A stretch of 20,000 bases of DNA from an uncultured virus (IMG/VR IMGVR_UViG_3300048033_000643) (taxonomy: Duplodnaviria; Heunggongvirae; Uroviricota; Caudoviricetes; Crassvirales). The position numbers and the translations under genes are program-made. The notes beneath the pieces were generated by a model, which saw only the letters and a list, made by a program, of their open reading frames with translations, made no database searches and was not told where the DNA came from. Below, one piece after another: positions 3-17,300 of this stretch. Within the stretch, counting starts at the first letter, position 1; each line of letters begins with the position of its first letter. The DNA lies in IMG/VR virus record IMGVR_UViG_3300048033_000643. One strand, 5' to 3'.

Positions 3-500
3 TGCGGGTTTGCGATCGGCTCAAGGGCGGGCGCTAAAAAAATGACTCTTGGCGTATGTCATCCCCGAAGTCATTCAGAAGATTCAGTTAATGAAATTTT
101 CATGTCGCCACAAATTGACGATTCTATTCAAACGCTCGGCACATTAGCGCATGAATTAATACACGCAATTGACGACTGCAAGAGCGGACACGGGAAAGCT
201 TTCCGAGACATGGCGCACGCTATAGGGTTAACGGGCAAAATGACCTCAACAACTGAAACGCCTGAGTTGGTAGAGATATTAAAAACCATTGTTGCTGATC
301 TTGGCGAATATCCACACGCTAAACTAAACCTAAACAAGCGCCCAAAACAGGGAACGCGTAACATTAAAATGGAATGCACCGACGACCACGGGAACGGGTG
401 CGGGTTTAGTTTCAGAACGTCGCAAAAAAATGTAGACATGATTCAAGTTGTAACCTGCCCCGCCTGTTGTAGCGAAACGAGTTACTTAAGCATAGCTTAA
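3..500 (+). CDS. SprT-like zinc metalloprotease with C-terminal Zn ribbon (5'-partial)
   Basis: HELIH (HExxH) motif followed by GHGKAF, as in SprT-like families. C-terminal Cys pairs (C-x7-C, CPAC). The frame is open upstream of ATG 42 to the window edge (CGFAIGSRAGAKK), so the true start is probably outside the window. Confidence 0.75.
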   Translation, partial: CGFAIGSRAGAKKMTLGVCHPRSHSEDSVNEIFMSPQIDDSIQTLGTLAHELIHAIDDCKSGHGKAFRDMAHAIGLTGKMTSTTETPELVEILKTIVADLGEYPHAKLNLNKRPKQGTRNIKMECTDDHGNGCGFSFRTSQKNVDMIQVVTCPACCSETSYLSIA

Positions 501-502
501 GA

Positions 503-514
503 GCGTTTAAACGC
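503..514. repeat. Palindrome GCGTTTAAACGC, first member of a dispersed GTTTAAAC array
   Basis: Core GTTTAAAC read at 505, 968, 1413, 1871, 2529, 3406, 4501, 5771, 6146, 9437, 11275 and 17064. Confidence 0.9.
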
Positions 515-516
515 CC

Positions 517-562
517 CCGACACCCCGCCTAGATAATAGCGCGGGGATTTGGTGGTAGTAAC
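517..562 (+). promoter_or_regulatory. Hairpin + GGATTTGGTGGTAG leader element, copy 1
   Basis: Stem CCCCGC (523-528)/GCGGGG (541-546) with inner CTA/TAG, followed by ATTTGGTGGTAGTAAC about 20 nt before ATG 580. The same architecture occurs at 5798-5842. Confidence 0.6.
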
Positions 563-579
563 TTTAATTAAATAAAATT

Positions 580-1224
580 ATGATTAGATTTAGTAAAGCG
601 GGAAAAATGCCGTGCCGATCTTGGAGTCTTCAAGCGTTGGACACTTGCCCCGCGTCCCGTGATAAAAGCGGGGAACTTGTTCCCGCTTGTAAGGGTTGTT
701 ATGCCGTCGGCGGTAACTATAGATTTAAAAACGTTAAGAGCGTACGCGAAGAAAACCGCAAAGACTGGAAGCGGGACGACTGGGCGCAAGACATGATTGA
801 GGAAATGAATTTAAACGATCGTTTTTTTCGGTGGTTTGATTCGGGGGACATTTATAGCATTCGATTAGCTGAAAAAATACTAGAAATTTGCACGGCTACG
901 CCGTGGGTTTTTCATTGGATCCCAACAAGAATGTACAAACTTTCAAAGTTTCGCCCCATCTTAGAGCGTTTAAACGCATTGCCTAACGTTGTTGTGCGCT
1001 ATAGTTCCGACGGCGTAAACGGGGAAACCATAGACGGCGCGGAATATCAAAGCACAATAATAAGCGACAAAACAAAATTAAATCCGAGTTTCAAAATCTG
1101 CAAGGCATACGAGAACGGCGGGAAATGTTTAAAATGTCGCGCGTGTTGGAGTAAAGAAAATAAAATAATTGCGTACATGGGACACGGCGCAAGCATGAGA
1201 AAAGAACAATTAAAAATAAATTAA
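580..1224 (+). CDS. Gp88-like (GP88 family) Cys-rich phage protein, possibly Fe-S/radical-SAM-related
   Basis: SKAGKMPCRSWSL..CP, CKGCYA, FRWFDSGD, HWIPTR and C-terminal CxxCxxCW motifs resemble the phage gene product 88 family. Confidence 0.7.
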   Translation: MIRFSKAGKMPCRSWSLQALDTCPASRDKSGELVPACKGCYAVGGNYRFKNVKSVREENRKDWKRDDWAQDMIEEMNLNDRFFRWFDSGDIYSIRLAEKILEICTATPWVFHWIPTRMYKLSKFRPILERLNALPNVVVRYSSDGVNGETIDGAEYQSTIISDKTKLNPSFKICKAYENGGKCLKCRACWSKENKIIAYMGHGASMRKEQLKIN

Positions 1225-1241
1225 ATTAAAATTAAAATACT

Positions 1242-1364
1242 ATGAAAAAATTAAATTTTTATGTGTACGTTTTTAAAAGCGGAAATATTGCCCCGTTTGA
1301 AATATCAGGGGAAAAAATCATTGGTATATGGAAAGTATACAAAACTTTTAAAACAAAACTATGA
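1242..1364 (+). CDS. Small hypothetical protein, 40 aa (MKKLNFYVYVFKSGNIAPFEISGEKIIGIWKVYKTFKTKL), absent from the ORF track
   Basis: A-rich leader. Fills the gap, and its TGA overlaps ATG 1361 (ATGA coupling). Confidence 0.65.
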   Translation: MKKLNFYVYVFKSGNIAPFEISGEKIIGIWKVYKTFKTKL

Positions 1365-1588
1365 GCAACAAAGCGCAATTTTTCCACAACGTAAAGAAAG
1401 CAAAGAGACAACGTTTAAACGCTATCTATACTAAAAGCGAATTATTAAAATTCTTCAATGATAAATTTATTGAAGTTTACCCGCATTACAATTACACGAC
1501 AAAAGAAACGACATTTGAAGTGCGAAGTATTAAGAATGTAATTTGGGAAAACCACGAGACACCGCAAGAAATAATAAATGAATATTAA
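1361..1588 (+). CDS. Hypothetical protein
   Basis: ORF track, coupled start, co-oriented cluster. Confidence 0.7.
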   Translation: MSNKAQFFHNVKKAKRQRLNAIYTKSELLKFFNDKFIEVYPHYNYTTKETTFEVRSIKNVIWENHETPQEIINEY

Positions 1589-1605
1589 TTAAAATAAATA
1601 AAATT

Positions 1606-1917
1606 ATGAGTAGTAAACACATTGAATTATCAAAATTAAATCACATTAAAATAGAGTCTGCAATAGTAAGGGACAGAGTCGGCGAAATCTTAGAGACTTT
1701 TTTTCTTCATAAAGACATAGGGACAGACATTCAAGAAATTACATCTTTATTAATTAACCATAATGTAATGGAAGAAACACAGGTTGAAAGATTAGAAACA
1801 TTTTTAGAAAGAATCGGTAAAAGTTTATGGAAGTCAGCAAACGAGTACGACAAAGCAAAAATTGAAGAGCGTTTAAACGTACCGAAGAAAAAAAATAACA
1901 GAGGTAAAAGAAAATAA
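1606..1917 (+). CDS. Hypothetical protein with basic C-terminal tail
   Basis: ORF track, A-rich leader. Confidence 0.75.
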   Translation: MSSKHIELSKLNHIKIESAIVRDRVGEILETFFLHKDIGTDIQEITSLLINHNVMEETQVERLETFLERIGKSLWKSANEYDKAKIEERLNVPKKKNNRGKRK

Positions 1918-1927
1918 ATAAAAATAA

Positions 1928-1960
1928 TTAGGAATTAATAATAAATTTGTTATATATTCG
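1928..1960 (+). promoter_or_regulatory. Putative Bacteroidota-type promoter (-33 TTAGG, -7 TATATTCG)
   Basis: TATATTCG (1953-1960) differs from the TAnnTTTG consensus at one position. A 20-nt AT-rich spacer separates it from TTAGG (1928-1932). Intergenic. Confidence 0.5.
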
Positions 1961-2129
1961 TAAAGTAATTAACAACAAAAGATTAATAATCTTAAAGGAC
2001 AACGAGTAAAGGTCAGAGTTTCCGAGTTTAAAAATTACGATTGATCTATCAAATAAATAGTAACAAGGTGTAAAATGGTGGCACCTACTCTAAGATAAAT
2101 TAAAACACCTGTAATTTTAAATAAATAGA

Positions 2130-2483
2130 ATGAAACTTTTAACTAATGGAATTTTAAAAATTGACGGAAGTTTAGACATAGAAATGTTAACGACTCCCGA
2201 AGAATGCGAAGAAATATTAAGTATTTTATCCATTCGTCAGCTAGTGGCAAAAATTGCCGACGGGGATATTGAATCTTCAGAACTTGAGCAAGCAAGCGCA
2301 GTAATTAAATGCTCAAATATTGATTATATGTTTGGCTTGTTAAAATCAGGGCAAAAAAATAAAGAGTTAATTTCTTTAGAAGAAAAAATCTATCTAAAAC
2401 AAATTAGATTAGCTAAAGAAAAAAGGGAAAGAGTAGAACCTTTCAATAAATTAATCAAGTCTCTGAAAGATTGGGATAAATAA
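2130..2483 (+). CDS. Hypothetical protein
   Basis: ORF track, A-rich leader. Confidence 0.75.
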   Translation: MKLLTNGILKIDGSLDIEMLTTPEECEEILSILSIRQLVAKIADGDIESSELEQASAVIKCSNIDYMFGLLKSGQKNKELISLEEKIYLKQIRLAKEKRERVEPFNKLIKSLKDWDK

Positions 2484-2493
2484 AATAAATAAA

Positions 2494-2841
2494 ATGACTA
2501 AAATTAATTTAAATAATTATCCGAGAGTGTTTAAACGCCACACTAAATTTTGGGCTGATTTTCATGACTACATAGAAAATTGTATCAATGGCGAAAAGAA
2601 AATGAATTTAGCGAAGTACAATTTAATAGTTTCTAAAAGAGATGTTTCCCTTTGGACTAAGTTAAATGTAAAACCTCATAGAGGTTGGAAAGTATCGCAA
2701 GTAAAAGAATACTTTGGAATCAAAGGAAGTAAAAAAACTTTGCTAGACAATTTCACAAAAGTGTTTGAGGAGTATATGTTATTAGAGAAAGAATTGACAA
2801 AGAAAGCGATGTTAGGAAACGTTCACATGGACGCATGGTAA
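2494..2841 (+). CDS. Hypothetical phage protein
   Basis: ORF track. Ends 8 nt before the tRNA. Confidence 0.75.
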   Translation: MTKINLNNYPRVFKRHTKFWADFHDYIENCINGEKKMNLAKYNLIVSKRDVSLWTKLNVKPHRGWKVSQVKEYFGIKGSKKTLLDNFTKVFEEYMLLEKELTKKAMLGNVHMDAW

Positions 2842-2849
2842 AAAATAAT

Positions 2850-2922
2850 TGCGGGTTAGAGCAGTGGTCAGCTCGTGAGTCTCATAAACTCAAGGTCATA
2901 GGTTCGAATCCTTTACCCGCAA
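2850..2922 (+). tRNA. tRNA-Met(CAT) with initiator-like body and atypical anticodon stem; CCA not encoded
   Basis: Acceptor TGCGGGT/ACCCGCA, D-stem GAGC/GCTC, anticodon arm TGAGT-CTCATAA-ACTCA, variable region AGGTC, T-arm ATAGG-TTCGAAT-CCTTT, discriminator A. Confidence 0.92.
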
Positions 2923-2924
2923 CA

Positions 2925-3108
2925 AAATCAGTATCTGAGATTAAATCAGGAACTCAGACTAAGCTTATTCCTGAACCAATGCCGTTGCAACGGCTACTTA
3001 ACCGAACGAGACTTAAAGTCTTTCAGTACATTAAGGAACGGGATAAAAGTAAGGCTGATTTCAAAATGTAGAAATAGGCGAGTATTGAAACAAGGGTACT
3101 AATTTCTA
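2925..3108 (+). ncRNA. Candidate structured ncRNA with an H-type pseudoknot, downstream of the tRNA
   Basis: Closing stem 2925-2932/3054-3061. Pseudoknot 2934-2939/2953-2958 plus 2946-2952/2968-2974. Hairpins at 2981-2994, 3008-3022 and 3069-3108. Confidence 0.55.
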
Positions 3109-3109
3109 A

Positions 3110-3148
3110 CGAGGGGTGGCAATACTCCAAACCCCTCGGCATTTTTTT
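3110..3148 (+). terminator. Rho-independent terminator
   Basis: Stem CGAGGGGT (3110-3117)/ACCCCTCG (3131-3138) followed by T7 (3142-3148). Confidence 0.7.
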
Positions 3149-3167
3149 AAAAAGTAAATTATTAATT

Positions 3168-3428
3168 ATGGCAAATATAAATTTCAGTAACGAGACAACA
3201 AAGCAATTGTTGGATTGTAAAAACGCACAGGTCGAGGCGTTACAAAAAGATCGACAAAAGAATATTGATTTTCTAAAACGACTAATAGAATACGTTGAAA
3301 ATCCAAAACATTCTGAAAACGAGTGGTCAGAGGATTTTCTAAGTGACGGCGAAATGTTGGATATAGTTGTTGATCAGTTAAAAAAATTCACAGCGATAAG
3401 ACATCGTTTAAACAACCCCAAATCATGA
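3168..3428 (+). CDS. Hypothetical protein
   Basis: ORF track. Stop overlaps the next ATG at 3425. Confidence 0.75.
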   Translation: MANINFSNETTKQLLDCKNAQVEALQKDRQKNIDFLKRLIEYVENPKHSENEWSEDFLSDGEMLDIVVDQLKKFTAIRHRLNNPKS

Positions 3429-3556
3429 GTAAAGAGTATATAATTAGTAAACTCAGGGATTTAAGAGACGAAACACCTTGTATAGAGGATTCACAAACTG
3501 CCTGTGGGTGCGAAAAGTTTGATGAAATAATAGATTTAATACAAAAAAATTTATGA
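3425..3556 (+). CDS. Small hypothetical protein, 43 aa (MSKEYIISKLRDLRDETPCIEDSQTACGCEKFDEIIDLIQKNL), absent from the ORF track
   Basis: ATGA overlaps at both ends (3425-3428 and 3553-3556). Confidence 0.7.
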   Translation: MSKEYIISKLRDLRDETPCIEDSQTACGCEKFDEIIDLIQKNL

Positions 3557-3750
3557 GTAAAGAAAAATTTCATTGGGAAGAAGACACTTGGGGTGTAGTT
3601 GTTACAGAAGCGGGCGACACATTAGAGATAAACTTGCACACTTGCGATGTTTCAGGAAGACAATACATAACTTTTTATCCTGAACTTACGACAGATGTTC
3701 ATGCTTCAAATAAAGTATTGGCACATTATGAAGTATTTAAAAAAGATTAA
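3553..3750 (+). CDS. Hypothetical protein
   Basis: ORF track, coupled start. Confidence 0.72.
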   Translation: MSKEKFHWEEDTWGVVVTEAGDTLEINLHTCDVSGRQYITFYPELTTDVHASNKVLAHYEVFKKD

Positions 3751-3751
3751 T

Positions 3752-4090
3752 ATGAATACTTGGATAGATAAAAATAGATTAATAGCAGAATTTATGGGAG
3801 TAGACCAAGTTGATATTGATACTTGGTGTGATGAATATACCGAATTAAAATACCAAACTTCTTGGGATTGGTTGATGCCCGTAATAGAGAAAATAGAAAC
3901 TCTTGGTTACACCTTTGAGAAAAACTATCAGCCAATAGACAAAGATTGGCAGTCATTAATAGTAAAAGGCAATGATATTCTTTATCAAGAATTTGATAAC
4001 GAAAGCATAAAAGCATCTTACTATGTGGTGTGTGAATTAATTGCCCAATTATGGGAAAAGAAAATAAGATTTAAAAAAAGTAAATTATGA
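3752..4090 (+). CDS. Hypothetical phage protein, possibly phage ABA-sandwich-like; start revised from 3695 to 3752
   Basis: NRLIAEFMG...Y..SWDWLMPVIEKIE pattern that I recall from Bacteroidota phage early genes. ATG 3752 lies 1 nt after the upstream stop. Confidence 0.7.
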   Translation: MNTWIDKNRLIAEFMGVDQVDIDTWCDEYTELKYQTSWDWLMPVIEKIETLGYTFEKNYQPIDKDWQSLIVKGNDILYQEFDNESIKASYYVVCELIAQLWEKKIRFKKSKL

Positions 4091-4371
4091 AATTAAAAGT
4101 AACGAGTTACAGAGAATTTGATACTCGACGAGGAGTAGGGTATGAATGTAAAACCAACGTAAAAGGTCTTTCCATTTGGAATGATGGCGATGGTGGATGC
4201 ACTTATTTTAGTGGGAATGAACACACTACAAGTGGAAAGATAATTTGGGAATATTCCGAAAAATATAATGAGAATCAAATAGAAGTTTTGATTGATGAAT
4301 TTCTGGGAATAACACCATATCAAAGATTAGAGGAAGAAAAAAAGTTTAAAGCTAAATTCAATTTATCATGA
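4087..4371 (+). CDS. Hypothetical phage protein (WNDGDGGCT motif)
   Basis: ORF track, ATGA coupling at both ends. Confidence 0.75.
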   Translation: MKLKVTSYREFDTRRGVGYECKTNVKGLSIWNDGDGGCTYFSGNEHTTSGKIIWEYSEKYNENQIEVLIDEFLGITPYQRLEEEKKFKAKFNLS

Positions 4372-4610
4372 ACGTAAAAGGAACTTATTGTATAACAGAA
4401 AGTATGGAACAATATAATCTCGAAATAGATTATCAGTATTACCATAAAAAACCTACACATTACGATCCACTTGAAGATCAGTTAGATATAAAAGAAGTGC
4501 GTTTAAACGGGATGGACATAACTAAATTCTATTGGGATTATCTCGATGAGGATATGTTTATTGATGTTTATGAGTACGCAGTAGAAAATAAATATGAAAA
4601 TCATGAGTAA
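4368..4610 (+). CDS. Hypothetical acidic/aromatic protein
   Basis: ORF track, coupled start. Confidence 0.75.
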   Translation: MNVKGTYCITESMEQYNLEIDYQYYHKKPTHYDPLEDQLDIKEVRLNGMDITKFYWDYLDEDMFIDVYEYAVENKYENHE

Positions 4611-4935
4611 AGAAATTAAAACCACTTACCAATATTCAGACTATAGGGGTAGTGAAATGATATGGTCAACAGAAGATATAGAGTCAATAGCTAAAAATTT
4701 AGATATTAATTATTTAGATTTTGATGACTATGATAAAATTCTGCACGATACATTTAAAAATTATGGTGCTGAGATCATGGACGAAGTCAGAGGGTTCTTT
4801 GAGGCTCAGGTTTATAATCATGCAAAAGCATTACAACACGAACACATTGACTTTGATGATTTCATGCCTATGAAAAAACACATGGAAAAATGTGAAGACA
4901 TTATAATTGAATCAATTAAAAAGAAAAAATCATGA
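4594..4935 (+). CDS. Hypothetical acidic protein (alternative start 4603)
   Basis: ORF track, overlaps both neighbours. Confidence 0.75.
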   Translation: MKIMSKEIKTTYQYSDYRGSEMIWSTEDIESIAKNLDINYLDFDDYDKILHDTFKNYGAEIMDEVRGFFEAQVYNHAKALQHEHIDFDDFMPMKKHMEKCEDIIIESIKKKKS

Positions 4936-5213
4936 GTATAAAATTAGATAGAATTGTAGCAATTGCTACCGATTTAAAAAACGATACTGAGTGGGTTAAC
5001 GATAGTCATTCTGAATATGAACACAAAGGTGTTGTTCATGGCTTAGATAGATTAATATCTCATCTAAAAGAAACTAAACCAACTGATGTAGAGAAGTTTT
5101 CTCAAACTCCTTTATATGAATGGTTTAATAATTTTGTTGATTATGTACAAGATAATCATAGAAACATTTATAACGAAGCGTGTGACTACGCTGATAAAAA
5201 AGAAGAGTTATGA
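4932..5213 (+). CDS. Hypothetical protein
   Basis: ORF track, ATGA coupling. Confidence 0.75.
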   Translation: MSIKLDRIVAIATDLKNDTEWVNDSHSEYEHKGVVHGLDRLISHLKETKPTDVEKFSQTPLYEWFNNFVDYVQDNHRNIYNEACDYADKKEEL

Positions 5214-5347
5214 GACATATTATAGCAATGTTAGATAATATCTATTTTGAAGTGAAAGAGTACGCACTAGAATCTGAGGATAAAGAAAAGGTTTTAGAAA
5301 AAATAAATGAAGTTCAAAATCAAGTAGAAAATTTATATGAAAAATAA
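5210..5347 (+). CDS. Small helical hypothetical protein, 45 aa (MRHIIAMLDNIYFEVKEYALESEDKEKVLEKINEVQNQVENLYEK), absent from the ORF track
   Basis: ATGA overlap with the upstream stop. Fills the gap. Confidence 0.68.
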   Translation: MRHIIAMLDNIYFEVKEYALESEDKEKVLEKINEVQNQVENLYEK

Positions 5348-5480
5348 AAAAAGACAATATCGCAGTAATCAAGGGCGAAGTCCAAAAAAAGAAAATGAAA
5401 TATTTCATCTTCTCAAATTAACTTTAATAGTATGCTCTTGTTTCGTTTTACTTTTAACTTTAGCTAAAATATTATTATGA
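5337..5480 (+). CDS. Small single-pass membrane protein, 47 aa (MKNKKRQYRSNQGRSPKKENEIFHLLKLTLIVCSCFVLLLTLAKILL), absent from the ORF track
   Basis: Basic N-terminus and a hydrophobic C-terminal stretch of about 22 aa. TGA overlaps ATG 5477. Confidence 0.7.
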   Translation: MKNKKRQYRSNQGRSPKKENEIFHLLKLTLIVCSCFVLLLTLAKILL

Positions 5481-5704
5481 ATTACAGAAAAGACAATATA
5501 GAATTAATAGGAAAAGTTTTAGAATTAGAAGGGCAAATTAAAGAATTAAAAAAAGTTCTGGTAATATCCGCTAATGAAAGAGATTTTTATAAGAAAAAGT
5601 TTTCTCAATGCAATGAGTGGGGCGGATCAGAGGAGTATGTTTCTAAAGAAGTTCCCTTAAATAAATTACTTTTAGTATTAGGAAATGATAAAAAAATAAA
5701 TTAA
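5477..5704 (+). CDS. Hypothetical coiled-coil protein
   Basis: ORF track, heptad-like N-terminal half. Confidence 0.7.
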   Translation: MNYRKDNIELIGKVLELEGQIKELKKVLVISANERDFYKKKFSQCNEWGGSEEYVSKEVPLNKLLLVLGNDKKIN

Positions 5705-5763
5705 ATTTACCTTGCTATGTATATTATTGATCCTGAATTAGAAGAACTATATCAAACACAATT

Positions 5764-5794
5764 TTTGTTTGTTTAAACGCTTTGTTTGTTTAAA
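5764..5794. repeat. 14-nt direct repeat TTTGTTTGTTTAAA x2
   Basis: Copies at 5764-5777 and 5781-5794. The first copy extends into GTTTAAAC (5771-5778). Confidence 0.85.
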
Positions 5795-5797
5795 TTG

Positions 5798-5842
5798 CGC
5801 CAACCTCTTAGTCAAAAGCTAAGAGGATTTGGTGGTAGAAAC
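5798..5842 (+). promoter_or_regulatory. Hairpin + GGATTTGGTGGTAG leader element, copy 2
   Basis: Stem CCTCTTAG (5804-5811)/CTAAGAGG (5819-5826), followed by ATTTGGTGGTAGAAAC about 18 nt before ATG 5857. Confidence 0.6.
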
Positions 5843-5856
5843 CATAATTTAATAAA

Positions 5857-6174
5857 ATGAAAAAAGATATTTTTGACTACTACGCAAATTCTGTAGCAAA
5901 ACAATTTAACATAACCTTAGAGCAGTTATTTACTCAAACAAAGGTAAGTCATATAGTAGACGCTCGACAAATTCTTTACTATCTATGTATTGAAAGACCT
6001 ATTAAAAAAAGTTACATCAAAACTTTTTTACAAGAACAAGGATATCAAGTCTCTCATTCAACTATGGAACACGGATATAAAAAAGCAGTTCAGCTTATTG
6101 AAAGCGATCCTGATTTTCAGAAAATGATTTTAGATATTAAACAACGTTTAAACGTAACGTTAAATGATAATTGA
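5857..6174 (+). CDS. Stand-alone DnaA C-terminal (domain IV) helix-turn-helix-like DNA-binding protein
   Basis: VAKQFNITLEQL...IVDARQILYYL...HSTMEHGYKK parallels the DnaA domain IV pattern (VA..Y.I....L...R....RQIAMYL...DHTTV.HA..K). Confidence 0.75.
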   Translation: MKKDIFDYYANSVAKQFNITLEQLFTQTKVSHIVDARQILYYLCIERPIKKSYIKTFLQEQGYQVSHSTMEHGYKKAVQLIESDPDFQKMILDIKQRLNVTLNDN

Positions 6175-6589
6175 AGAATTGTATTACATATTTGAGGAAG
6201 CTTTAAATGATAGAAAAGCTATAGAAACTCAGACTAAAAAAGTTCATTCCGTAATAGCTAATGGAGTTAAAATTCAAAAGTTTTCTGATCGAATAGAAAT
6301 ACTTAACATGGGGAAAGGTGGCGACTATTTCCAAGAATGCACACTTGAGGAGTATGATTTTTTCTATGATGAGGGATGGGAAGTTGGATGTTATAAGGTT
6401 AAGATTAACAACTGCATACATAAACTTAAGATAATAGAAGAAAATATTAAAACTGAAGTAAATACAAGAAAGAACGATAAGCATATTCAAAATTTAAAAA
6501 ATAGAAGAGAAAAAATTCTTCAGAAATATACTATAAATAAAAATAAATTAAATCAAATCAAATCAAATCAAAATGGAAAATTACTTTAA
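6164..6589 (+). CDS. Hypothetical protein with coiled-coil C-terminus
   Basis: ORF track, overlaps both neighbours. Confidence 0.75.
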   Translation: MIIEELYYIFEEALNDRKAIETQTKKVHSVIANGVKIQKFSDRIEILNMGKGGDYFQECTLEEYDFFYDEGWEVGCYKVKINNCIHKLKIIEENIKTEVNTRKNDKHIQNLKNRREKILQKYTINKNKLNQIKSNQNGKLL

Positions 6590-7163
6590 AAAGTTGTCAG
6601 CCATCAACGTAAAAGGAATGGCAGAAAAAAAAGGAAATTTTAATTACCTATCATGGGCAAACGCTTGGTCACTTATTAAAGAGGCTTATCCTGATGCTCA
6701 AAGAAAAGTTTATGAATCAGCACAAACAGAGCTACCTTATTTTACAGACGGCAAAACTGCTTCAGTAAAAGTTGGAATAATGGTTAATGGTATAGAACAC
6801 ATTGATTATTTACCTGTAATGGATTACAGAAACAATTCAATTCCTATAGCTAAAATTACATCTATGGATGTTAACACTGCAATACAAAGGTCTACTGCAA
6901 AAGCTATTGCTATGCACGGATTAGGTATAGCTATATTTAAAGGCGAGGATTTGGTAAATATTGCAAGTCCGAAAGCTAACGTACCTAAGGAGCCTAAGAA
7001 GGAGATTACTTACACTCTAAAGGTAGGGGGCGATAATTGGGAAAAAGTTCTTAATTACATATCTAAAAAGCGAGGAGATGGATTAGAGAAAATAATCCAA
7101 ACTTTATCTACCAAGTACAAGATTACTGCTGAGGTAAAAAAAGAAATAGCTAAAAACGTATAA
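6573..7163 (+). CDS. DUF1071 / Sak3-like single-strand annealing recombinase
   Basis: YLSWANAW, VKVGI, LPVMDYRN and NTAIQR..AKAIAMHGLG motifs. Adjacent to an exonuclease and an SSB. Confidence 0.8.
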   Translation: MENYFKKLSAINVKGMAEKKGNFNYLSWANAWSLIKEAYPDAQRKVYESAQTELPYFTDGKTASVKVGIMVNGIEHIDYLPVMDYRNNSIPIAKITSMDVNTAIQRSTAKAIAMHGLGIAIFKGEDLVNIASPKANVPKEPKKEITYTLKVGGDNWEKVLNYISKKRGDGLEKIIQTLSTKYKITAEVKKEIAKNV

Positions 7164-7164
7164 C

Positions 7165-7902
7165 ATGACAGAATCTGTAAAAGAAATTGTCGGCAATTTA
7201 GCTGATGACACAAAATATTATGGCGAGTATGGTCAACAATTTTTATCTAACTCAGACATACTTAACTTACTTAAGTTTCCAGAAAAATTTAAGGTGCCAC
7301 AAGCTAAAACAAAAGCTATGGTGGAAGGAAATTATTTTCATACTGCGATATTGGAGCCTGAAAAACTCATAGATTTTAAAGTGATAGATGTGGCTTCAAG
7401 ATCAACAAAAGCTTACAAAGAAACTTGTGGGGAGAATGAAATATTATTGCTTCAAAAAGAAAAACTTCATCTTGATAGTTTAATTGACAAGATGCAATCG
7501 AATCTTGAGATGTTCGATGAAATTTATAAAGAAGGCAACAAGTTTGAAGTTCCACAAATTTCTGAGATAATGGGCAATACTTGGAAAGGTAAAGCTGATA
7601 TTGTTACAGATGAATTTGTAATTGACATTAAAACAACAAACGACATTTCAAAATTTTATTGGAGTTGCATGAATTATAATTACGATTCACAAGCTTATCT
7701 TTATCAAAGATTTTTTAACAAACCATTAAGGTTTTATGTAATAGATAAACAATCATTTCAGTTAGGAATTTACGACTGCTCTGCAAACTTTATAGAGGGT
7801 GGTAAAAACAAAGTAGAAAAAGCAACTGAGGTGTATAATAAATTTTTTAGCAATGAAAAAACTCATAACATACATAACTACATCCATAAAGAAATTCTTT
7901 AA
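7165..7902 (+). CDS. PD-(D/E)XK exonuclease (DUF3799 / RecE exonuclease VIII-like)
   Basis: LSNSDI, G..FHTAILEP, KGKAD, IDIKTT and Y..QAYLY motifs. Confidence 0.82.
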   Translation: MTESVKEIVGNLADDTKYYGEYGQQFLSNSDILNLLKFPEKFKVPQAKTKAMVEGNYFHTAILEPEKLIDFKVIDVASRSTKAYKETCGENEILLLQKEKLHLDSLIDKMQSNLEMFDEIYKEGNKFEVPQISEIMGNTWKGKADIVTDEFVIDIKTTNDISKFYWSCMNYNYDSQAYLYQRFFNKPLRFYVIDKQSFQLGIYDCSANFIEGGKNKVEKATEVYNKFFSNEKTHNIHNYIHKEIL

Positions 7903-8044
7903 GGTCTGTAGTCTTGAAAAAACAACAAGAAAAGGAGTAATGTGGGTGGATGTTCCAAACACCTGCACCTCAAGATTAGAGAAAGATTTTATTCTCTATG
8001 ACACAATAGATAGATTGGAGCAAAAAATTAAAATTATAAAATAA
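7853..8044 (+). CDS. Hypothetical protein
   Basis: ORF track. TAATG coupling with the SSB gene. Confidence 0.6.
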   Translation: MKKLITYITTSIKKFFKVCSLEKTTRKGVMWVDVPNTCTSRLEKDFILYDTIDRLEQKIKIIK

Positions 8045-8292
8045 TGGCAGAAAACTATGTACATCCTAATGGTAGTGGTTCTTTATTTAAGAATAGCTAC
8101 AAGGAAAAAGAAAATCAGCCTGATTACAAAGGGACAATTACGTTACCAGATGGATCAGAAAAAGAATTGGCTGGCTGGAAAGGAACAACTCAATCAGGAG
8201 ATGTTAAACTTTCAATTAAAATTAGTGACAAGTATGTGAAACCTCAATCAAATGACGAAAATCAAAGCAAATCATCTGAGGATTTATTTTAA
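8044..8292 (+). CDS. Single-stranded DNA-binding protein (DUF736-like OB fold)
   Basis: GSLFKN..K....PDYKG...LAGW motif and an acidic C-terminal tail ending EDLF. Confidence 0.75.
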   Translation: MAENYVHPNGSGSLFKNSYKEKENQPDYKGTITLPDGSEKELAGWKGTTQSGDVKLSIKISDKYVKPQSNDENQSKSSEDLF

Positions 8293-8300
8293 GTAACTAA

Positions 8301-8384
8301 GCATCAAATCAGGAGAAGCCACACTCAAGGAGGAGGCGAGATTTACTGACGAGTAATTAAGGTTCGATTCCTTTTTTGATGCCA
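8301..8384 (+). ncRNA. tRNA-like element or degenerate tRNA (acceptor stem, T-arm and variable-arm hairpin; no D-stem)
   Basis: GCATCAAA (8301-8308)/TTTGATGC (8375-8382), AAGG-TTCGATT-CCTT (8359-8373), TTACT-GACG-AGTAA. Confidence 0.55.
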
Positions 8385-8402
8385 ATTTAATCAAACAAAC
8401 AA

Positions 8403-10814: not shown

Positions 10815-10816
10815 TT

Positions 10817-12052
10817 ATGGAATTAAGAGATTATCAAAAAGAGATTGTTAGATTAGGTGTAAATGTTTTAAAAGAACACAAATTTGTTTATCTTGCCATG
10901 GAAGTTAGGACTGGCAAGACACTTACGAGTTTGAGTATTTGTAAGACTCTTGCTGTTTCTAACGTTTTATTCATTACAAAAAAGAAAGCTATATCCAGTA
11001 TTCAAGATGATTACGACTTACTCAATCCTGATTTTTCTATTACTATTATTAATTACGAGTCGCTTCATAAAATAGATTCATCTCTGTATGATGTTGTAAT
11101 ATGTGATGAAGCTCATGGTATGGGTGCTTATCCTAAGCCTAGTAAAAGAGCAAAAGATGTAAAATCTTTAATACAAGTAAACAAAAATCCTTCTGTAATA
11201 TTATTATCTGGAACACCTACACCAGAGTCTTATTCTCAAATGTATCATCAAGTTTATGCTTTACCAGGCAACCCGTTTAAACAGTATAAAAGTTTCTATA
11301 AATTTTCACATCAGTACGTTAATATTACACAGAAAAAAATAGGGCCAACAAGTATTAACGATTATAGTGATGGTAAAGAGTCAATTCTTTATGAAATGAA
11401 ACCATACATGATTTCTTTTACACAGCAAGAAGCCGGTTTTAAAACACAAATTACTGAAGAGATATTAACTGTAGCAATGCATGAGTCAACTCATAACATG
11501 GTTAAAAAACTTAAAAAAGAAAGAGTTCTACAAGGTCAAGTAGAAGTTGTGTTGGCTGACACAGCTGTAAAACTTATGTCTAAAATTCATCAGCTGTATT
11601 CAGGAACTGTTAAGTTTGAAAGCGGAAATTCAGGTGTAACAGATTGGGCAAAAGCTAAATTTATACATGGTTATTTCCAAAACAAAAAGATAGCTATATT
11701 CTATAAGTTTAAAAAAGAATTAGAGGCTATTACTGACATATTTGGCGAGTCTGTAACTACAGATTTAAAAGAATTTAAAGAAACTAACAAGTGTATTGCT
11801 TTACAAATTGTTTCAGGAAGAGAAGGTATTAGTTTAAAAGAAGCTGAAGCTCTTGTGTATTATAACATTGATTTTAGTGCCACAAGTTACTGGCAGTCAA
11901 GAGACAGGATGACTACTAAAGACAGGCAGTATAATAAAATTTACTGGGTGTTTGCTGAAAATGGTATAGAGCATCAGATTTATAAAACTGTTATAGGTAA
12001 AAAGGATTACACTTTAAATCATTTTAAAAGAGATTTACTTACACTTAGATAA
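10817..12052 (+). CDS. SNF2-like / SF2 DEAH helicase
   Basis: LRDYQ, MEVRTGKT, INYESL, DEAH, LSGTP, SGREGISL and QSRDR motifs. Confidence 0.88.
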   Translation: MELRDYQKEIVRLGVNVLKEHKFVYLAMEVRTGKTLTSLSICKTLAVSNVLFITKKKAISSIQDDYDLLNPDFSITIINYESLHKIDSSLYDVVICDEAHGMGAYPKPSKRAKDVKSLIQVNKNPSVILLSGTPTPESYSQMYHQVYALPGNPFKQYKSFYKFSHQYVNITQKKIGPTSINDYSDGKESILYEMKPYMISFTQQEAGFKTQITEEILTVAMHESTHNMVKKLKKERVLQGQVEVVLADTAVKLMSKIHQLYSGTVKFESGNSGVTDWAKAKFIHGYFQNKKIAIFYKFKKELEAITDIFGESVTTDLKEFKETNKCIALQIVSGREGISLKEAEALVYYNIDFSATSYWQSRDRMTTKDRQYNKIYWVFAENGIEHQIYKTVIGKKDYTLNHFKRDLLTLR

Positions 12053-12536: not shown

Positions 12537-12561
12537 TTTCACTATATTTAAAATTAAAACA

Positions 12562-12684: not shown

Positions 12685-12687
12685 TAA

Positions 12688-13972: not shown

Positions 13973-14051
13973 GGTAGGAATTACATTATTGCAATGTTTG
14001 CAATGAAAATAAAATCCATTCTGGTTTGAACCATGTAAGTTCATAATCTTG

Positions 14052-14303: not shown

Positions 14304-14306
14304 TAA

Positions 14307-17300
14307 TTAAAAAGGAGATTTAGGCATGCCACTGCTTCTCCTATTACTAAATGGAGATTTAGGGCCAGAGGGTTTATTACTTTTTTTAGTTTTATTTTTC
14401 TTTTTCTTTTTAGGAATGTAAGTGTTTTCTTTTGCTTTTCTTGTTTTTTTATAAGCTCTAAAATTATAATCCATTATTGCCCCTGCCTCAAGCGGCAAAA
14501 ATCCTAATAAATATAATGTGTACATAGGAGCTTGAGCTAAAAGATCATTTTTATATTTTGGATCCATTTCTACTTCTCTACCATATCTATCTTTATATTT
14601 ACCTGTTGTCGCTAAAGAAACCATATCCACAATTTGCAAGGCTTTTTCCCCACCAATTCCTAACACACCTAACCTATCTAATAACCCTTCAGGCTGATTT
14701 ACAAAAAATTGAAAAGGATCATCGCTATCAAATGTTGCTATTAAAGCGTTAGTAGCTTGTAAAACCTCAGGATTCACTAAAGGAATTGGGCTAACTATAT
14801 CTGCAAAAGCTTGCCCTTTTCTACCTTTTTTTCTATTTTCAAATTGCTTTAACAAAGTTTCTTCATCTTCATCTGTTCCTCTTAGCGCCCTGGCCGCTCC
14901 AGCTAAAGATTGTGTTATAAATAATCCAACCGCATTAAATGTTGCAGTTTCTGCAACTAATCCTCCAAGAGATTTTCCAGCTTTTAGTTTATCTTGTACT
15001 GTATTTGATTTAGAAAACACTGCACCTAAATCATTATACATCCTTGTTTTTTGATTTAATAAAAAGTTTGCAAAAGGAAAAGCTACTTTTCGTAAAACCT
15101 GAAGAACTGGATCTTTACTTGCAAACAACTCCCCTTGTAAATCTACATCCGATGTATTTTGTTGTCTTGCAACCTGTTGAGTGGCATAATTTAACGCCTT
15201 ATCATTACTCTTGTGCGTACTCCAATCTATATTATTAGAATCAATATTTTGTTTTTTTAAACTTTCTAAATAATAAGCCATAAAAGAAGCTCTTGCCGCA
15301 AATCTGTCAGGATTTACAAGAAAACCTTGCAACCAACCTTTTTGAGCTTTATTAATTACATCCCCAAATTTTCCTGCTTTACCTGTAGAATCTGTTTCTA
15401 ATCTAGAATCTGTTCCTTCGAGGTTAGTCACTGCCTGCACTCCTCTATTAGCGATCTCAACCCCTGAATTATCTAGCCATTTTATTGCATCTGTGTTTGT
15501 ACCTATTAAATTAATTCCTTTAAAAACAGCACTAGGATTATTAATTGTATTTATAAAAGTATTAATTAAAGGAACCATTTGTTTTACATATTGAGTTGGG
15601 CCACCAAGAACTCTTGATACACCTAAGCCTGCAAAACGATTTAAATTTCTTAACCATTTTTCTTGTCCTTTTTGTAAACCTCGTTTTTTTTCTACATATC
15701 CTTTAAATCTTTCTTTTATTAACTTCCTGTCTTCTGTGTTAGGTATAATTTTTTCAAATGAAGGTGAAGACATAAACCCTTTTAATTGTTGAATTCCTGG
15801 AGCAGTATTAACATCGGTTAGAGCAGCTCTTAAATTATTAACATTATTACTATCAAAACCTAAATTTACATATCTATTTGTATTTCCATCCTTATCCATA
15901 GGCAAAACAAAAGAAGGTTTTTTAACTTTTAAAACTCCAGTCTCTTTATCATATACCGTCTCATTAGTGTCAGGCTGAAAAATAGGTTTGTCTAAACTTG
16001 GTTCTGATTCTACACCGTCTAATTTAGAAAAAGAATCAGGTGTATAATTTAAATCTTTACCTAAGGTTCTATTATATATATTTAAAGATACATCTTCTAA
16101 TTCAGGACGAGCTTTTGACCATTCATTAGTCATCCAGTCTACTGCACTTTTATTTATTGGATCAGTTTTTTTATCTACTTCATTTATACTGTTAGAGTTT
16201 TTTAACAATTTATCAAAAACTTTTTGATAATTTTCTGCTTTTTCGGTTTGACCATTATCTTTTAACTCTTTAATACTTAATTTTACAAGGCCCTTTCTTC
16301 TGTTAAATTCTTGGTCTTGTTCCGCTTCAGTTCCGTCAACTGTTCTTCTCATAAAAGCAAACACTCCTCTTTCAAGATCATTCTCTACATCATTAAATCT
16401 TTTTCCATTAGGCATTGTTTTAGTGTTACCTAATTTTACATTACTTCGTAGTCCGCCTGGATTTATAAATTTATCATAATACGCTTCAGTTATGTTTTGA
16501 GCAAGTTTATCAGCTTTAGCAACTCCGTTCCTTATAGTTGTAAAACCACTTATTTTTTCAAACAACAAAGCTTTGCTTTGAGATTTAAACATTTGTTCTA
16601 TGCTTTGAGGTATAGATGCTATGAATTTATTCCAAGCGTTACCTAACATTTTACCTCCAAATAAGAACTTTAAAGGTTTTGCATTTAATTTATTTTCATT
16701 ATCTACAGCATTTTGCCTTCCTTTAGCAAAATTAACGATAGCTTTTAAACCCCCTACACTTTGATTTGTAGCAAAGTTATTCATAGCAAGTAAAGCTTTA
16801 GCTCCATCTTCAGACGGTAAATTACTTATGTCAGTTTTTAAAAATTCAGATACAATTTTCTTGTCTTTTTGAGATATTTTAATTTCTTTACCAGTGAACG
16901 GATCTTTTCCTGTTTTAATAATTTGATCAACTACAGCTGAATATTTACCAAAAGCATTTTTTAAACCTTTAGCTATTACGCTTTTTTTTGTTTGTCTTAG
17001 TTTTGTTTTTTCTTCTGCGCTAAGATTATTAGTTTCAAAATTATAAAGAATTCTTTGCAGTTCGTTTAAACTAAAATCTTTAGGATCCAAGCCGGTTAAA
17101 TCTGCAAAAGCTTTTTGTTCCGCTTTAGTTTTAATTTTATCTTGCAACACTTGTTCTGCTTTAGTATATTTATCTATACTTTCTATATTAAGTGCTTCAG
17201 AAATTTTTACATCTCCTTTTTTTGAAGTTTTAATTGGAGTTAATCCTTGCACTACAGAATTAGCGTTAGCTACAAAAGATTCTAAATCATTAATGTTTTC

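Follow-up and report, generated by a model that had tools for sequence, protein, structure and literature searches.

Plasmid RK2 carries KorB operators (OB) and phage P1 carries C1 operators, in both cases as a dozen or more dispersed copies, some of which lie within genes or at a distance from promoters, and their binders are ParB-type or repressor proteins. Stoperators are asymmetric, oriented with transcription and bound by an immunity repressor. Among proteins that act on DNA, the SprT/Spartan/Wss1 metalloproteases combine an HExxH zincin core with a zinc-binding module that contacts DNA, and DNA binding switches on their proteolysis; the anti-restriction protein ArdC also has a SprT-like protease domain. 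We know of no SprT/Spartan/Wss1 enzyme that reads a specific sequence. Cluster O mycobacteriophages carry 17-bp dyad-symmetric repeats, TGTTCGGNNNCCGAACA (34 copies in Corndog), that are denser toward one genome end, many of them intergenic and about one-third within genes; in the sections that describe these repeats, the authors could assign neither a function nor a binder (PMC4351075). In archaeal viruses, shared regulatory motifs precede early anti-defence genes (PMC11065993).

Here, we describe a palindromic site, GTTTAAAC, that recurs in a 20,000-nucleotide stretch of DNA from an uncultured virus of the Crassvirales (the window) and in relatives that include C10, a contig of genome G001 that is 92% identical to the window. 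Like the Cluster O repeats, it is an inverted repeat of invariant sequence that is present many times in a genome and is denser at one end, but its sequence, host phylum and phage type are different (PMC4351075). In addition, the Cluster O descriptions report no linked gene, whereas the motif described here tracks a SprT-like gene across unrelated phages (PMC4351075). As with the Cluster A stoperators (L5 gp71 type), a short site is present in many copies in transcribed DNA beyond promoters (PMC4351075); unlike stoperators, it has a palindromic core and no linked immunity repressor. The archaeal virus motifs are similar in that early viral genes share a cis motif by which they can be recognized, but those motifs are promoter-bound and read by a transcription regulator (PMC11065993). 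As in RK2 and P1, one palindromic or conserved site is spread over a mobile genome, but no ParB-type or repressor domain was found in C10. The logic we propose for the SprT-like protein, DNA-activated proteolysis, would be that of SprT, Spartan and Wss1; unlike those enzymes, the family described here shows a weak match to PF10263, with an N-terminal dimer region and a C-terminal zinc ribbon of its own. A literature search found no published description of this gene-site pairing.

A palindromic site is enriched and clustered at one end of the window

The sites and the elements near them are as follows.

3..500, + strand: SprT-like zinc-metalloprotease gene with C-terminal zinc ribbon, 5' end cut by the window edge; candidate trans-acting partner
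504..513: site 1, CGTTTAAACG, AGAG upstream; intergenic, 4 nt past the SprT-like stop codon; kept in C10 and L027 despite diverged flanks
514..579, + strand: adjacent element, a variable G+C-rich hairpin followed by ATTTGGTGGTAGTAAC and then an A/T-rich leader that runs to the ATG at 580
967..976: site 2, CGTTTAAACG, AGAG upstream; within the GP88-family gene (580-1224), frame R-L-N; kept in C10 and L027
1412..1421: site 3, CGTTTAAACG; within ORF 1361-1588, which is mosaic in C10 downstream of the site
1870..1879: site 4, CGTTTAAACG, AGAG upstream; close to the 3' end of ORF 1606-1917, with a TAAATTTG box 71 nt downstream at 1942
2026..2033: degenerate site GTTTAAAA; the orthologous L027 position (6290) is GTTTAAAC
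2528..2537: site 5, TGTTTAAACG, GAGAG upstream; within ORF 2494-2841, frame V-F-K; kept in L027, gene missing from C10
3405..3414: site 6, CGTTTAAACA; followed 19 nt later by the ATG at 3425; kept in C10
4500..4509: site 7, CGTTTAAACG; within ORF 4368-4610; kept in C10, L027 and L029 with variable flanks
5770..5779: site 8, TGTTTAAACG; intergenic, 86 nt upstream of a DnaA-domain-IV-like gene; kept in C10, lost in L027, L028 and L029
5780..5856, + strand: second hairpin and ATTTGGTGGTAGAAAC unit, after site 8 and before the ATG at 5857
6145..6154: site 9, CGTTTAAACG; followed 18 nt later by the ATG at 6164; kept in C10, lost by deletion in L027, GTTTAAAG in L028/L029
9437..9444: outlying GTTTAAAC in the primase gene, C..A flanks; kept in C10, L027, L028 and L029; array membership uncertain
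11275..11282: outlying GTTTAAAC in an SNF2-type helicase gene; kept in C10 and L027, not in L028/L029; array membership uncertain
17064..17071: outlying GTTTAAAC within a giant minus-strand gene; C10 has ATTTAAAC at this place; probably background

Our recount confirmed all 12 GTTTAAAC positions given in an earlier note on this DNA (505, 968, 1413, 1871, 2529, 3406, 4501, 5771, 6146, 9437, 11275 and 17064), where about 1-2 are expected. Dinucleotide shuffles of the window contained a mean of 1.00 copies and a maximum of 5, and none of 200 reached 12; Markov models of order 0-5 predicted 0.78-1.91. Only the order 6 model, which already contains the motif's own 7-mers, gave a higher expectation (5.23). 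GTTTAAAC is the top 8-mer of the window by enrichment, and the excess thus persists after the Markov correction that the earlier note had named as a check. The longer form CGTTTAAACG is present in the six copies claimed (504, 967, 1412, 1870, 4500 and 6145) against 0.01-0.10 expected, all of them within 504-6154. The described flanks were likewise found: the 5' base is C in 10 and T in 2 of the 12 sites, the 3' base is a purine in 11, and AGAG(C/T) lies upstream at 505, 968, 1871 and 2529. Six of the seven coding sites in the early region read R-L-N and one reads V-F-K; the third frame is impossible within a gene because GTTTAAAC would give TAA there. We refer to this region as early because its gene order and gene content suggest such a timing. 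The phage that carries the array is a marine phage in which the repeated palindrome runs along the first genes.

The sites are conserved in relatives

The clustering recurs in C10, where 11 of 19 GTTTAAAC copies and 8 of 8 CGTTTAAACG copies fall within the first 6.7 kb of this 65.4-kb contig. All eight aligned sites are intact in C10, against a background of 56% for 10-mers, and six of eight are intact in L027, against 28.5%. Within the sites, 18 of 18 (C10) and 15 of 18 (L027) third codon positions are kept, while third-position divergence outside the sites is 14% and 30%, respectively. These alignments demonstrate that purifying selection acts on the sites. Both checks on relatives that had been named earlier, conservation at synonymous positions in two relatives and clustering in related phages, therefore came out in favor of the proposals that the constraint acts on DNA and that the array is polar.

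The same comparisons bear on which protein reads the sites. The earlier note named as a candidate the DnaA-domain-IV-like protein (5857-6174), which has a helix-turn-helix (PF08299, 32.9 bits versus a cut-off of 31.5) and is flanked by sites 8 and 9. However, its gene is widespread in relatives with no array (C21, C9 and L028/L029) and accompanies a different palindrome in MW202828.1. The L027 copy is only 56-58% identical, yet the same array is kept; the L028/L029 copy is 69% identical, yet the flanking sites are lost, and sites 8 and 9 are precisely those lost in relatives. Moreover, the predicted recognition stretch V-S/T/Q-H-S-T/S is unchanged in copies with and without an array, and DnaA boxes are not enriched in number (8 versus 5.87 expected). 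We therefore regard this protein as a very improbable binder; the SprT-like gene at 3-500, which had gone unnamed, is the better candidate.

A role in restriction-modification or defence, in which a methylase modifies the site, or the site serves as a decoy or as a self-marker that a nuclease reads, would suit the restriction-type form of GTTTAAAC, a classical 8-bp palindrome of that kind, and its very high densities would suit a genome-wide mark. Nevertheless, scans of C10 turned up no methylase or restriction domain, cleavable sites should be selected against rather than for, and in G001, the nearest bacterial genome compared, GTTTAAAC is neither depleted nor enriched (148 versus 133 for the control). 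Eight of the 11 CGTTTAAACG copies in G001 are within the phage contig C10, and by the G001 counts GTTTAAAC is not a host motif. The methyltransferase and decoy roles suggested earlier thus lose their footing, also on the named check of host genomes, and we consider this family of explanations highly doubtful.

The motif accompanies a SprT-like gene across unrelated phages

We used an alignment of the SprT-like protein (A4) to retrieve 80 viral contigs (31-72% identity, 648 kb in total) and counted GTTTAAAC with its reversed sequence as the control word. These loci contain 408 copies of the motif and 14 of the reversed word, with at least 3 copies in 52 of the 80 contigs, at least 5 in 36 and at least 10 in 12. 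In 45 of the 80, no palindromic 8-mer is more enriched than GTTTAAAC, and the enrichment of GTTTAAAC spans G+C contents of 0.32 to 0.65. Control sets retrieved the same way behaved differently: 80 Sak loci (895 kb) had 38 copies versus 11 reversed and 63 GP88 loci (533 kb) had 15 versus 8, each with a single locus of at least 3 copies, which in both sets belongs to the window's own lineage. Three cultured phages that carry the gene or a homologue have the motif and no reversed word: Pseudanabaena phage Pan1 (16:0, with a site that precedes the gene by 73 nt), Dinoroseobacter phage R26L (20:0) and E. coli phage ECO1230-10 (5:0, one site 19 nt upstream). Whole-record ratios of motif to reversed word are 30:1 in G002, 39:0 in G003, 41:1 in G004, 24:0 in G005 and 49:2 in G006, and PF10263 is present in G002, G005, G006, the window, C10 and the L027 contig.

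The sites begin about 1 kb upstream of the SprT-like gene and continue downstream. For loci with at least 4 sites, the numbers of sites in successive 1-kb bins between -5 and +5 kb of the gene start are 3, 6, 6, 6, 41, 70, 77, 54, 40, 28 and 17, as raw numbers from loci that hold different amounts of DNA on either side of the gene. Across these sequences, the gene and the motif are statistically associated and the array is polar.

The SprT-like gene is missing where there is no array: it is absent from five cultured relatives of G006 (by large terminase), whose motif counts are 3, 1, 0, 2 and 0, from MW202828.1, G007, G008 and G010 and, by tblastn, from C21 and C9. It was also not found in G003 and G004, which have the densest arrays and are fragments (23% and 55% complete). 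Fewer than 3 sites are present in 28 of the 80 SprT-like loci, and Bordetella phage FP1 and Arthrobacter phage KeAlii have a homologue and 0 sites; therefore, either the link is not universal or specificity varies within the family. Of the nine loci with high G+C content (at least 0.67), seven have no GTTTAAAC. The association does not separate the SprT-like protein from a co-travelling gene as the binder; the former is the candidate that we prefer over a tightly linked factor.

The predicted dimer symmetry of the SprT-like protein fits that of the site

The product of 3-500 matches PF10263 at 28.0 bits versus a cut-off of 25.6. Matches in the family are weak (28-33 bits), with those of G005 and G006 under the cut-off, and the protein had no match to any solved structure or NCBIfam model. 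The HELIH motif and Cys pairs are visible in alignment A4. Homodimer prediction scored 0.52, versus 0.00 for the best of 3 controls, with contact agreement between runs of at least 83% and partner pLDDT of at least 79. Of 30 proteins with solved structures as pairs of a single chain, 20 attained the 0.52 mark, compared with 1 of 23 single-chain structures, counts that hold only roughly here because we used our own alignment. A homodimer with two-fold symmetry is thus predicted, and such symmetry agrees with that of a palindromic site. At its fullest, the site extends to an 18-bp palindrome, AGRGCGTTTAAACGCYCT, found in 12 of the loci examined.

Possible functions of the sites

Based on these observations, the explanation that we prefer, at about even chances, is that the SprT-like zinc-metalloprotein encoded by the phage itself docks at the GTTTAAAC sites on early phage DNA. 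Of the roles offered earlier, protein-loading sites on early DNA is the reading favored by the evidence. What binding would achieve, whether the cleavage of host proteins on the DNA or the regulation of genes, is a further step that we infer.

If the sites instead served transcription control, they would be operators or promoter-associated boxes through which a dimeric regulator, either the SprT-like protein as a mere DNA binder or a different phage protein, for example a conserved 160-aa helical regulator encoded beside chaperonin genes, switches the early operon on or off, much like the dispersed operators of other phages and plasmids. The array begins in a divergent control region, with the promoter-proximal site 50 nt (C10) and 51 nt (L027) upstream of a TATATTTG box, which we take, from its consensus, to resemble the Bacteroidota -7 element. 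In line with this idea, intergenic DNA and the ends of upstream genes have more than their share of sites: 7-10 per genome are intergenic, though non-coding DNA is only 2-10%, and 33 of 154 coding sites are within 60 nt of a gene end versus about 10% expected. Site clusters prefer 40-59 nt spacing (16 versus 6.45 expected, reached in 2 of 2000 simulations), and MW202828.1, L171 and L176 have different palindromes at the same place. A lean of the sites toward gene starts suits a role in expression no less than it suits a patrolling protease. However, promoter control would need far fewer sites than the 5-6 present within one 0.8-kb gene or the 39 present within 9.3 kb, the sites also extend through structural genes in Pan1, R26L and G006, and the 160-aa regulator is also found in relatives without arrays. 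A host factor is unlikely, since the same 8-mer occurs in phages of cyanobacteria, roseobacters and E. coli and in a Bacteroidota-type phage. Overall, we judge transcription control to be unlikely, though a serious contender.

Orientation of the flanks raises the possibility that the element acts in RNA: AGRGCGUUUAAAC in early transcripts would be cut or bound by a factor for RNA processing or translational control, which might be the zincin-like protein. In 10 oriented loci, 28 of 31 matches to the extended motif point the same way as the SprT-like gene; separate counts are 3 of 3 in the window, 3 of 3 in C10 and 7 of 8 in G002. In addition, 14 of 48 intergenic sites are at most 25 nt upstream of a start codon. 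Yet the core is strictly palindromic and the fullest sites are 18-bp palindromes, neither of which an RNA signal needs, and only weak RNA hairpins (0 to -4.1 kcal/mol) are predicted for the nine sites of the window. Purine-rich coding strands that tolerate only the AGRG half might explain why the flanks favor one strand. An RNA element therefore appears improbable.

Palindromic sites of chromosome-organising proteins are mostly genic and clustered by region, a distribution that would also fit sites that organise or maintain the phage genome, whether centromere-like or clamp-loading (in the manner of parS/ParB or KorB/OB) or in replication or packaging. Pan1 and R26L have sites every 1-11 kb, mostly 3-6 kb, genome-wide, and C10, C21 and C9 are separate 62-65 kb contigs of one bacterial assembly, as episomes would be. 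On the other hand, no ParA, ParB, integrase or similar domain was detected in the scanned C10 ORFs, and array-bearing phages differ in their primases. We consider such a maintenance role quite improbable.

The docking-site explanation would make the SprT-like gene and the sites a portable two-part module. The gene would head a rightward, presumed early operon, with one site upstream of it and more downstream for several kilobases, both genic and intergenic. In the mechanism we prefer, modelled on DNA-dependent SprT/Spartan/Wss1 proteases, the protease would be held at the sites on the early DNA of its own phage and switched on there, and might then cut host proteins bound to this DNA, such as nucleoid silencers, defence nucleases and roadblocks; this proteolysis is purely inferred, by analogy. 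Autoregulation via the promoter-proximal site would be a likely side effect. The recurrence of one motif beside one protease-like gene in many unrelated phages points to an undescribed pair of protein and docking site on phage DNA. The hairpin units, which adjoin sites 1 and 8 and could at most possibly belong to the array, number two per genome in the window and likewise in C10 and L027.

The palindrome array is polar and under selection

The array of GTTTAAAC palindromes in the window is real, selected and polar. All 12 site positions in the earlier note, together with its statements on their flanks, were correct, and the enrichment it had roughly estimated persists after Markov correction, with 12 copies of this 8-mer core against 0.78 to 1.91 expected under models of order 0 to 5. 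Shuffled versions of the window contain a mean of 1.00 copy, and none of 200 shuffles reaches 12. The 10-mer form, CGTTTAAACG, occurs six times where at most 0.10 copies are expected, and every copy lies within 504-6154, the stretch holding sites 1 to 9. The first site starts four nucleotides after the end of a SprT-like gene, and the intervals between successive sites widen downstream (463, 445, 458, 658, 877, 1095, 1270, and 375). The window is phage DNA and is laid out as follows.

3 to about 13,970, plus strand: genes for the SprT-like protein, a GP88-family protein, about 15 small ORFs of unknown function, tRNA-Met, a DnaA-domain-IV-like protein, a Sak annealing protein, an exonuclease, a primase-helicase with a BT4734-like domain, an SNF2-type helicase, a VRR-NUC nuclease, and an Mre11-like exonuclease
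3-500, plus strand: SprT-like gene
504-6154: sites 1 to 9, the first starting at 504
514-579 and 5780-5856: composite units, each directly after a GTTTAAAC site
14307-20000, minus strand: giant virion-type protein of 2138 aa with a weak ART-PolyVal match (15081-21497 in contig C10)

The same polar pattern is present in C10, a separate 65,353-bp phage contig with a 19-bp terminal overlap in G001, the nearest of the bacterial genomes compared: 11 of its 19 8-mers and all eight of its 10-mers fall in the first 6.7 kb. C10 is 92% identical to the window, and all eight aligned sites are intact over 10 nt, against a background of 56% for 10-mers in the region. In L027, a 62-kb viral contig that is 83% identical in aligned DNA, six of eight sites are intact (background 28.5%). 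In a check that the earlier note had suggested, conservation extends to synonymous positions: within sites, all 18 third codon positions are kept in C10 and 15 of 18 in L027, compared with 14% and 30% divergence elsewhere. Sites 8 and 9, on either side of the DnaA-like gene, are the two that L027 has lost, as have the viral loci L028 and L029. Lineage-specific genes carry sites of their own (C10 3704; L027 6290 and 9653), and thus sites are gained as well as kept.

The window array has an invariant inverted repeat in many copies, in both intergenic and coding DNA, skewed to one region of the genome, all features of the Cluster O type. Its closest published parallel is the 17-bp dyad repeat of Cluster O mycobacteriophages, present in more than 30 copies and partly within genes, to which its authors assigned neither a binder nor a function (PMC4351075).

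The composite unit occurs twice per genome and consists, in order, of a variable G+C-rich hairpin, (A/T)TTTGGTGGTAG(T/A)AAC, an A/T-rich leader, and ATG. From the window to C10 the hairpin changes in sequence but keeps its pairing.

The same motif recurs in unrelated phages

Scanning a viral collection with one extended site, GAGCGTTTAAACGC, yielded 119 loci, none of them longer than 6 kb. Only the site used to find them was present in 82 of these, while 12 contained at least five copies of GTTTAAAC, with up to 27 in 5 kb. We compared motif counts in whole records with those of a reversed control, in which GTTTAAAC is written backwards, and obtained motif:control ratios of 30:1 (G002), 39:0 (G003), 41:1 (G004), and 24:0 (G005); the ratio was 49:2 in G006, whose genome is complete at 63.5 kb and bears a 123-bp direct terminal repeat. 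These array-bearing phages vary in G+C content (0.33-0.50), primase type, and structural genes. Among cultured phages, the large terminase places G006 nearest to HTVC023P-type pelagiphages and cyanophages, which have 0-3 sites each. The flanks of the sites are again Y...R, and those in G002 show the same AGRGC extension as in the window.

Each of these genomes has 7-10 intergenic sites although noncoding DNA makes up only 2-10%. Of 154 coding sites, 33 fall within the final 60 nt of a gene, a share expected to be about 10%. Neighboring sites favor a spacing of 40-59 nt, seen 16 times against 6.45 expected and equaled in 2 of 2000 simulations. At G003 6090-6272, G004 2790-2944, and L234 2948-3108, four GTTTAAAC copies spaced 42-79 nt (mostly 44-57) form an intergenic cluster directly after a terminator-like hairpin. 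The heptamer U_UUA_AAC is slippery, and we considered whether the sites might serve in -1 frameshifting; this reading was rejected because the 6:1 frame bias of the window is gone in G006, where the two possible reading frames of coding sites are equally represented (21:21), and because many sites are intergenic.

One gene family is associated with the motif

A single protein family, the SprT-like proteins, links the window and C10 to the array phages by BLAST, with genes at the following positions.

Window, 42-500
C10, 616-1215 (full-length form)
G002, 24235-25128
G005, 9677-10270

Profile searching adds SprT-like genes in G006 and in the L027 contig. Scores against PF10263 (gathering cut-off, 25.6 bits) were 28.0 for the window protein and 33.3 for both its C10 orthologue and G002, and fell below the cut-off for G005 (23.4 bits) and G006 (20.7 bits). 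In A4, our alignment of SprT-like proteins, the HExxH zincin motif (H90, E91, and H94, as HELIH) is invariant, as are H103 and three cysteines of a C-terminal ribbon. No SprT-like gene was found in the array-less genomes, namely, five cultured relatives of G006, MW202828.1 (a phage with a different palindrome), and the contigs of L171, L176, and L029, or by tblastn in C21 and C9, two array-less and more distant phage relatives that are also contigs of G001.

We also approached the association from the gene, using 80 viral contigs found with A4 out of at least 219 SprT-like relatives. GTTTAAAC was abundant in this set and scarce in sets of loci containing Sak or GP88 genes.

Occurrence of GTTTAAAC in three sets of viral loci
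Set; loci; DNA; GTTTAAAC; reversed control; loci with at least 3 GTTTAAAC
SprT-like; 80; 648 kb; 408; 14; 52
Sak; 80; 895 kb; 38; 11; 1
GP88; 63; 533 kb; 15; 8; 1

At least five copies were present in 36 of the 80 SprT-like loci and at least 10 in 12. Among loci with at least four sites, counts per kb from -5 to +5 kb of the gene start were 3, 6, 6, 6, 41, 70, 77, 54, 40, 28, and 17, as raw numbers not normalized for the DNA on each side; the window, with its first site close behind the gene and its widening intervals, agrees with this profile. Cultured, tractable carriers of the family comprise Escherichia coli phage ECO1230-10, Dinoroseobacter phages R26L and R5C, and Pseudanabaena phage Pan1. 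Motif:control counts are 16:0 in Pan1, 20:0 in R26L, and 5:0 in ECO1230-10, and a site lies 73, 286, and 19 nt, respectively, upstream of the gene. Bordetella phage FP1 and Arthrobacter phage KeAlii have the SprT-like gene and zero sites, Microbacterium phages are likewise among the SprT-like relatives lacking GTTTAAAC, and fewer than three sites were found in 28 of the 80 SprT-like loci and in most high-G+C loci; thus, either specificity varies within the family or the link is imperfect. Overall, the association of one gene family with the motif across unrelated phages is strong and repeated.

Close phage kinship as such was rejected as the basis of the array, which among 48 Sak-containing viral loci of at least 8 kb occurs only in L027 and is lacking in C21 and C9. 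GP88 was rejected as a partner, the array being confined to the window's own lineage among the 63 GP88 loci. Full-text literature searches, and the main text of the Pan1 and R5C genome papers, returned no description of the motif in phages or of a link to SprT-like genes.

Symmetry of the sites and possible roles of the protein

The sites have a palindromic core of 8-10 bp, and 12 loci of the motif scan contain the full 18-bp palindrome AGRGCGTTTAAACGCYCT. Stoperators, unlike these sites, are asymmetric. The SprT-like protein is predicted to have a two-fold symmetric pairing interface (e.g., residue 39 with 39 and 40 with 40). Homodimer prediction gave 0.52, compared with 0.00 for the best of three controls; the runs agreed in at least 83% of contacts, with a partner pLDDT of at least 79. 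Of proteins solved as one-chain pairs, 20 of 30 attained this mark, as did 1 of 23 solved as single chains; these counts are only approximate here, our own alignment having been used. The model supports homodimer pairing without proving it, and we infer that the sites are bound by the SprT-like protein in dimeric form. In 28 of 31 matches from 10 oriented loci, the half-flank AGRG points the same way as the gene, which may indicate a directional function or may mean only that a purine-rich coding strand tolerates one half of a symmetric site.

SprT, Spartan, and Wss1 are DNA-dependent proteases. By analogy, we speculate that binding could tether and activate the SprT-like protease on early phage DNA, where it would remove host proteins. 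In this tentative and on balance doubtful account, the phage metalloprotease would read an 8-18 bp palindrome repeated in its own early DNA, such that the genome would recruit and activate the protease where host silencers, restriction, or other defense proteins would attack. Such a module would be able to move between phages of cyanobacteria, Proteobacteria, and Bacteroidota, with a site number, from 5 to about 40 per genome, tuned by selection. A competing explanation, which we keep alive, is that the sites act in gene expression as operators or promoter-associated boxes; the lean of the sites towards gene starts speaks in its favor.

Comparative statistics now tie a dispersed palindromic phage motif to one specific protein family. 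Because that family has cultured carriers, a long-standing loose end, repeats that lack a binder and a function, becomes directly testable. A DNA-tethered protease, if real, would represent a new counter-defense logic and would be the first protein of the SprT/Spartan class with sequence specificity. If the protein is instead a regulator, the motif would mark a widespread early-gene regulon and could be used to find early and anti-defense genes in uncultured phages. Under either reading, it offers a simple signature of where the early operon starts, and which way it runs, when metagenomic phage contigs are annotated.

Other candidate binders and roles

The earlier note had proposed the DnaA-domain-IV-like protein as a candidate binder. 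We abandoned this proposal, as the protein does not track the array, the sites do not resemble the DnaA box (consensus, TTATCCACA), and no co-variation was found. Its suggestion of a methylase target, taken as that of a type II restriction-modification system, likewise failed: no methylase was found in C10, and G001, which is the nearest genome compared and not a proven host, has 148 copies of GTTTAAAC against 133 of the reversed control, i.e., no avoidance. The same counts show no excess, and a host Chi-like element, an uptake sequence, and a host regulator site were rejected. G001 has 11 copies of CGTTTAAACG, eight of them in C10; two of the three chromosomal copies read ...EERLNG-stop at the ends of similar reading frames.

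Recombination linkers were rejected, with 2 of 24 mosaic junctions (window versus C10 or L027) within 50 nt of sites (permutation p = 0.80). Hairpin promoters of the N4 type were rejected on the weakness of the predicted RNA hairpins (0 to -4.1 kcal/mol). A promoter for a crAss- or N4-type virion RNA polymerase was rejected because no polymerase was detected, there being no RNA polymerase domain or DxDxD-type motif in 77 C10 ORFs. The phi14:2 preprint reports early transcripts without a common upstream motif. Sigma-70-type promoters (28 matches, compared with 29.0 in shuffles) and parS/ParB or OB/KorB systems (no ParB or ParA domain in 27 window and 56 further C10 ORFs by Pfam and PHROGs) were also set aside. 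All relatives, array-bearing or not, have a 160-aa regulator. Structure models were too poor for use for this regulator (pLDDT 52.8) and for window ORF 1606-1917 (54.6), for which a protein atlas gave no usable match.

Different palindromes and cis elements in related phages

Three other phages have different palindromes at the same place, where a divergent control region leads into the rightward operon. MW202828.1 (43745-55173, equal to L023 13745-25173), which has no SprT-like gene, contains 14 perfect copies of the 16-bp palindrome GTGTCGTTAACGACAC, 13 of them in the early-type region. Most sit immediately behind a stop codon, with the following ATG 20-43 nt away (usually 20-27); the predicted RNA hairpin is -8.2 kcal/mol. 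L171 has six copies of TTCGTCTAGACGAA (3006-6152), including two in the divergent control region at a distance of 23 bp, and L176 has four copies of CGTAACTCAGTTACG (4722-6360). The L171 and L176 arrays lie upstream of GP88-family genes. An outer CGT...ACG is common to the four palindromes of the window, MW202828.1, L171, and L176. BLAST and two rounds of profile searching found no gene, small binder included, common to all four palindrome types. Weak palindromes of other loci, CTTTAAAG, GCAATTGC, ACATATGT, and others, lack conserved flanks and were set aside.

In more distant relatives (L066 791-4668 and L069 3625-7582), each early gene is headed by a variable hairpin with a conserved leader of some 30 nt behind it, GTTAGTTAC... 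or TCAGTTAC...AAAnnATACTACAATG, units that we take to resemble the promoter/stem-loop cassettes of T4-type phages. The GP88-bearing phages L160 (1429-1720), L150 (4897-5090), and L173 (3017-3070) carry tandem arrays of TTGGCACG-N4-TTGCATGG, which resembles the sigma-54 -24/-12 consensus; in L160, two DnaA-box-like words, TGTGGATAA, stand beside this array.

Genome layout and relatives

The layout of C10 suggests that the rightward region is early: a divergent control region at the contig junction separates a rightward operon (410-14,746) from a leftward block.

C10 14,826-65,212, leftward: chaperonins, lysis, tail, terminase, portal, capsid, and two giant virion proteins

The gene adjoining the 2138-aa giant has a crAss muzzle-protein domain, and giant proteins elsewhere measure 3162 aa (G006) and 3859 aa (MW202828.1). 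An Rfam search of the window matched only the tRNA. The window stretch was found in marine metagenome runs from about ten studies, and reads of four runs reveal 593 variable places.

The G001 assembly contains three related 62-65 kb phage genomes as separate contigs (C10, C21, and C9) as well as a 32-kb contig with related genes (C24). No integrase, partition gene, or classical repressor was found in C10. This arrangement may reflect carriage as episomes or a carrier state. About seven TGTCAT/ATGACA repeats, several as inverted pairs, lie in C10 at 64650-64960 (L017 4650-4960), with the chaperonin gene on one side and the control region on the other. C21 62042-62230 (L013 12042-12230) has about eight tandem copies of the 19-bp unit AAAAGTGATGTGTCACTAG, which is an imperfect inverted repeat in its own right; this array, with 9-bp repeats nearby, adjoins early genes at the contig end and may be an iteron or operator region. 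The top k-mers of C9 are due to about 20 tandem 75-nt coding repeats (...NQPIxSWDTSSVTxM...) in a large gene (13768-16600; L020).

Window ORF 1361-1588 and C10 2190-2405 share only their first 25 or so residues, including the site (read R-L-N), and the remainder is unrelated, indicating a gene mosaic. In contigs of two metagenome runs (X4 and X12), position 3756 is joined to 4090; these are thus natural variants that, like C10, lack the ORF at window 3757-4089. The small early ORFs at window 3425, 3553, and 4604 start alike, with ATGAGTAAAGA(A/G), read as M-S-K-E.
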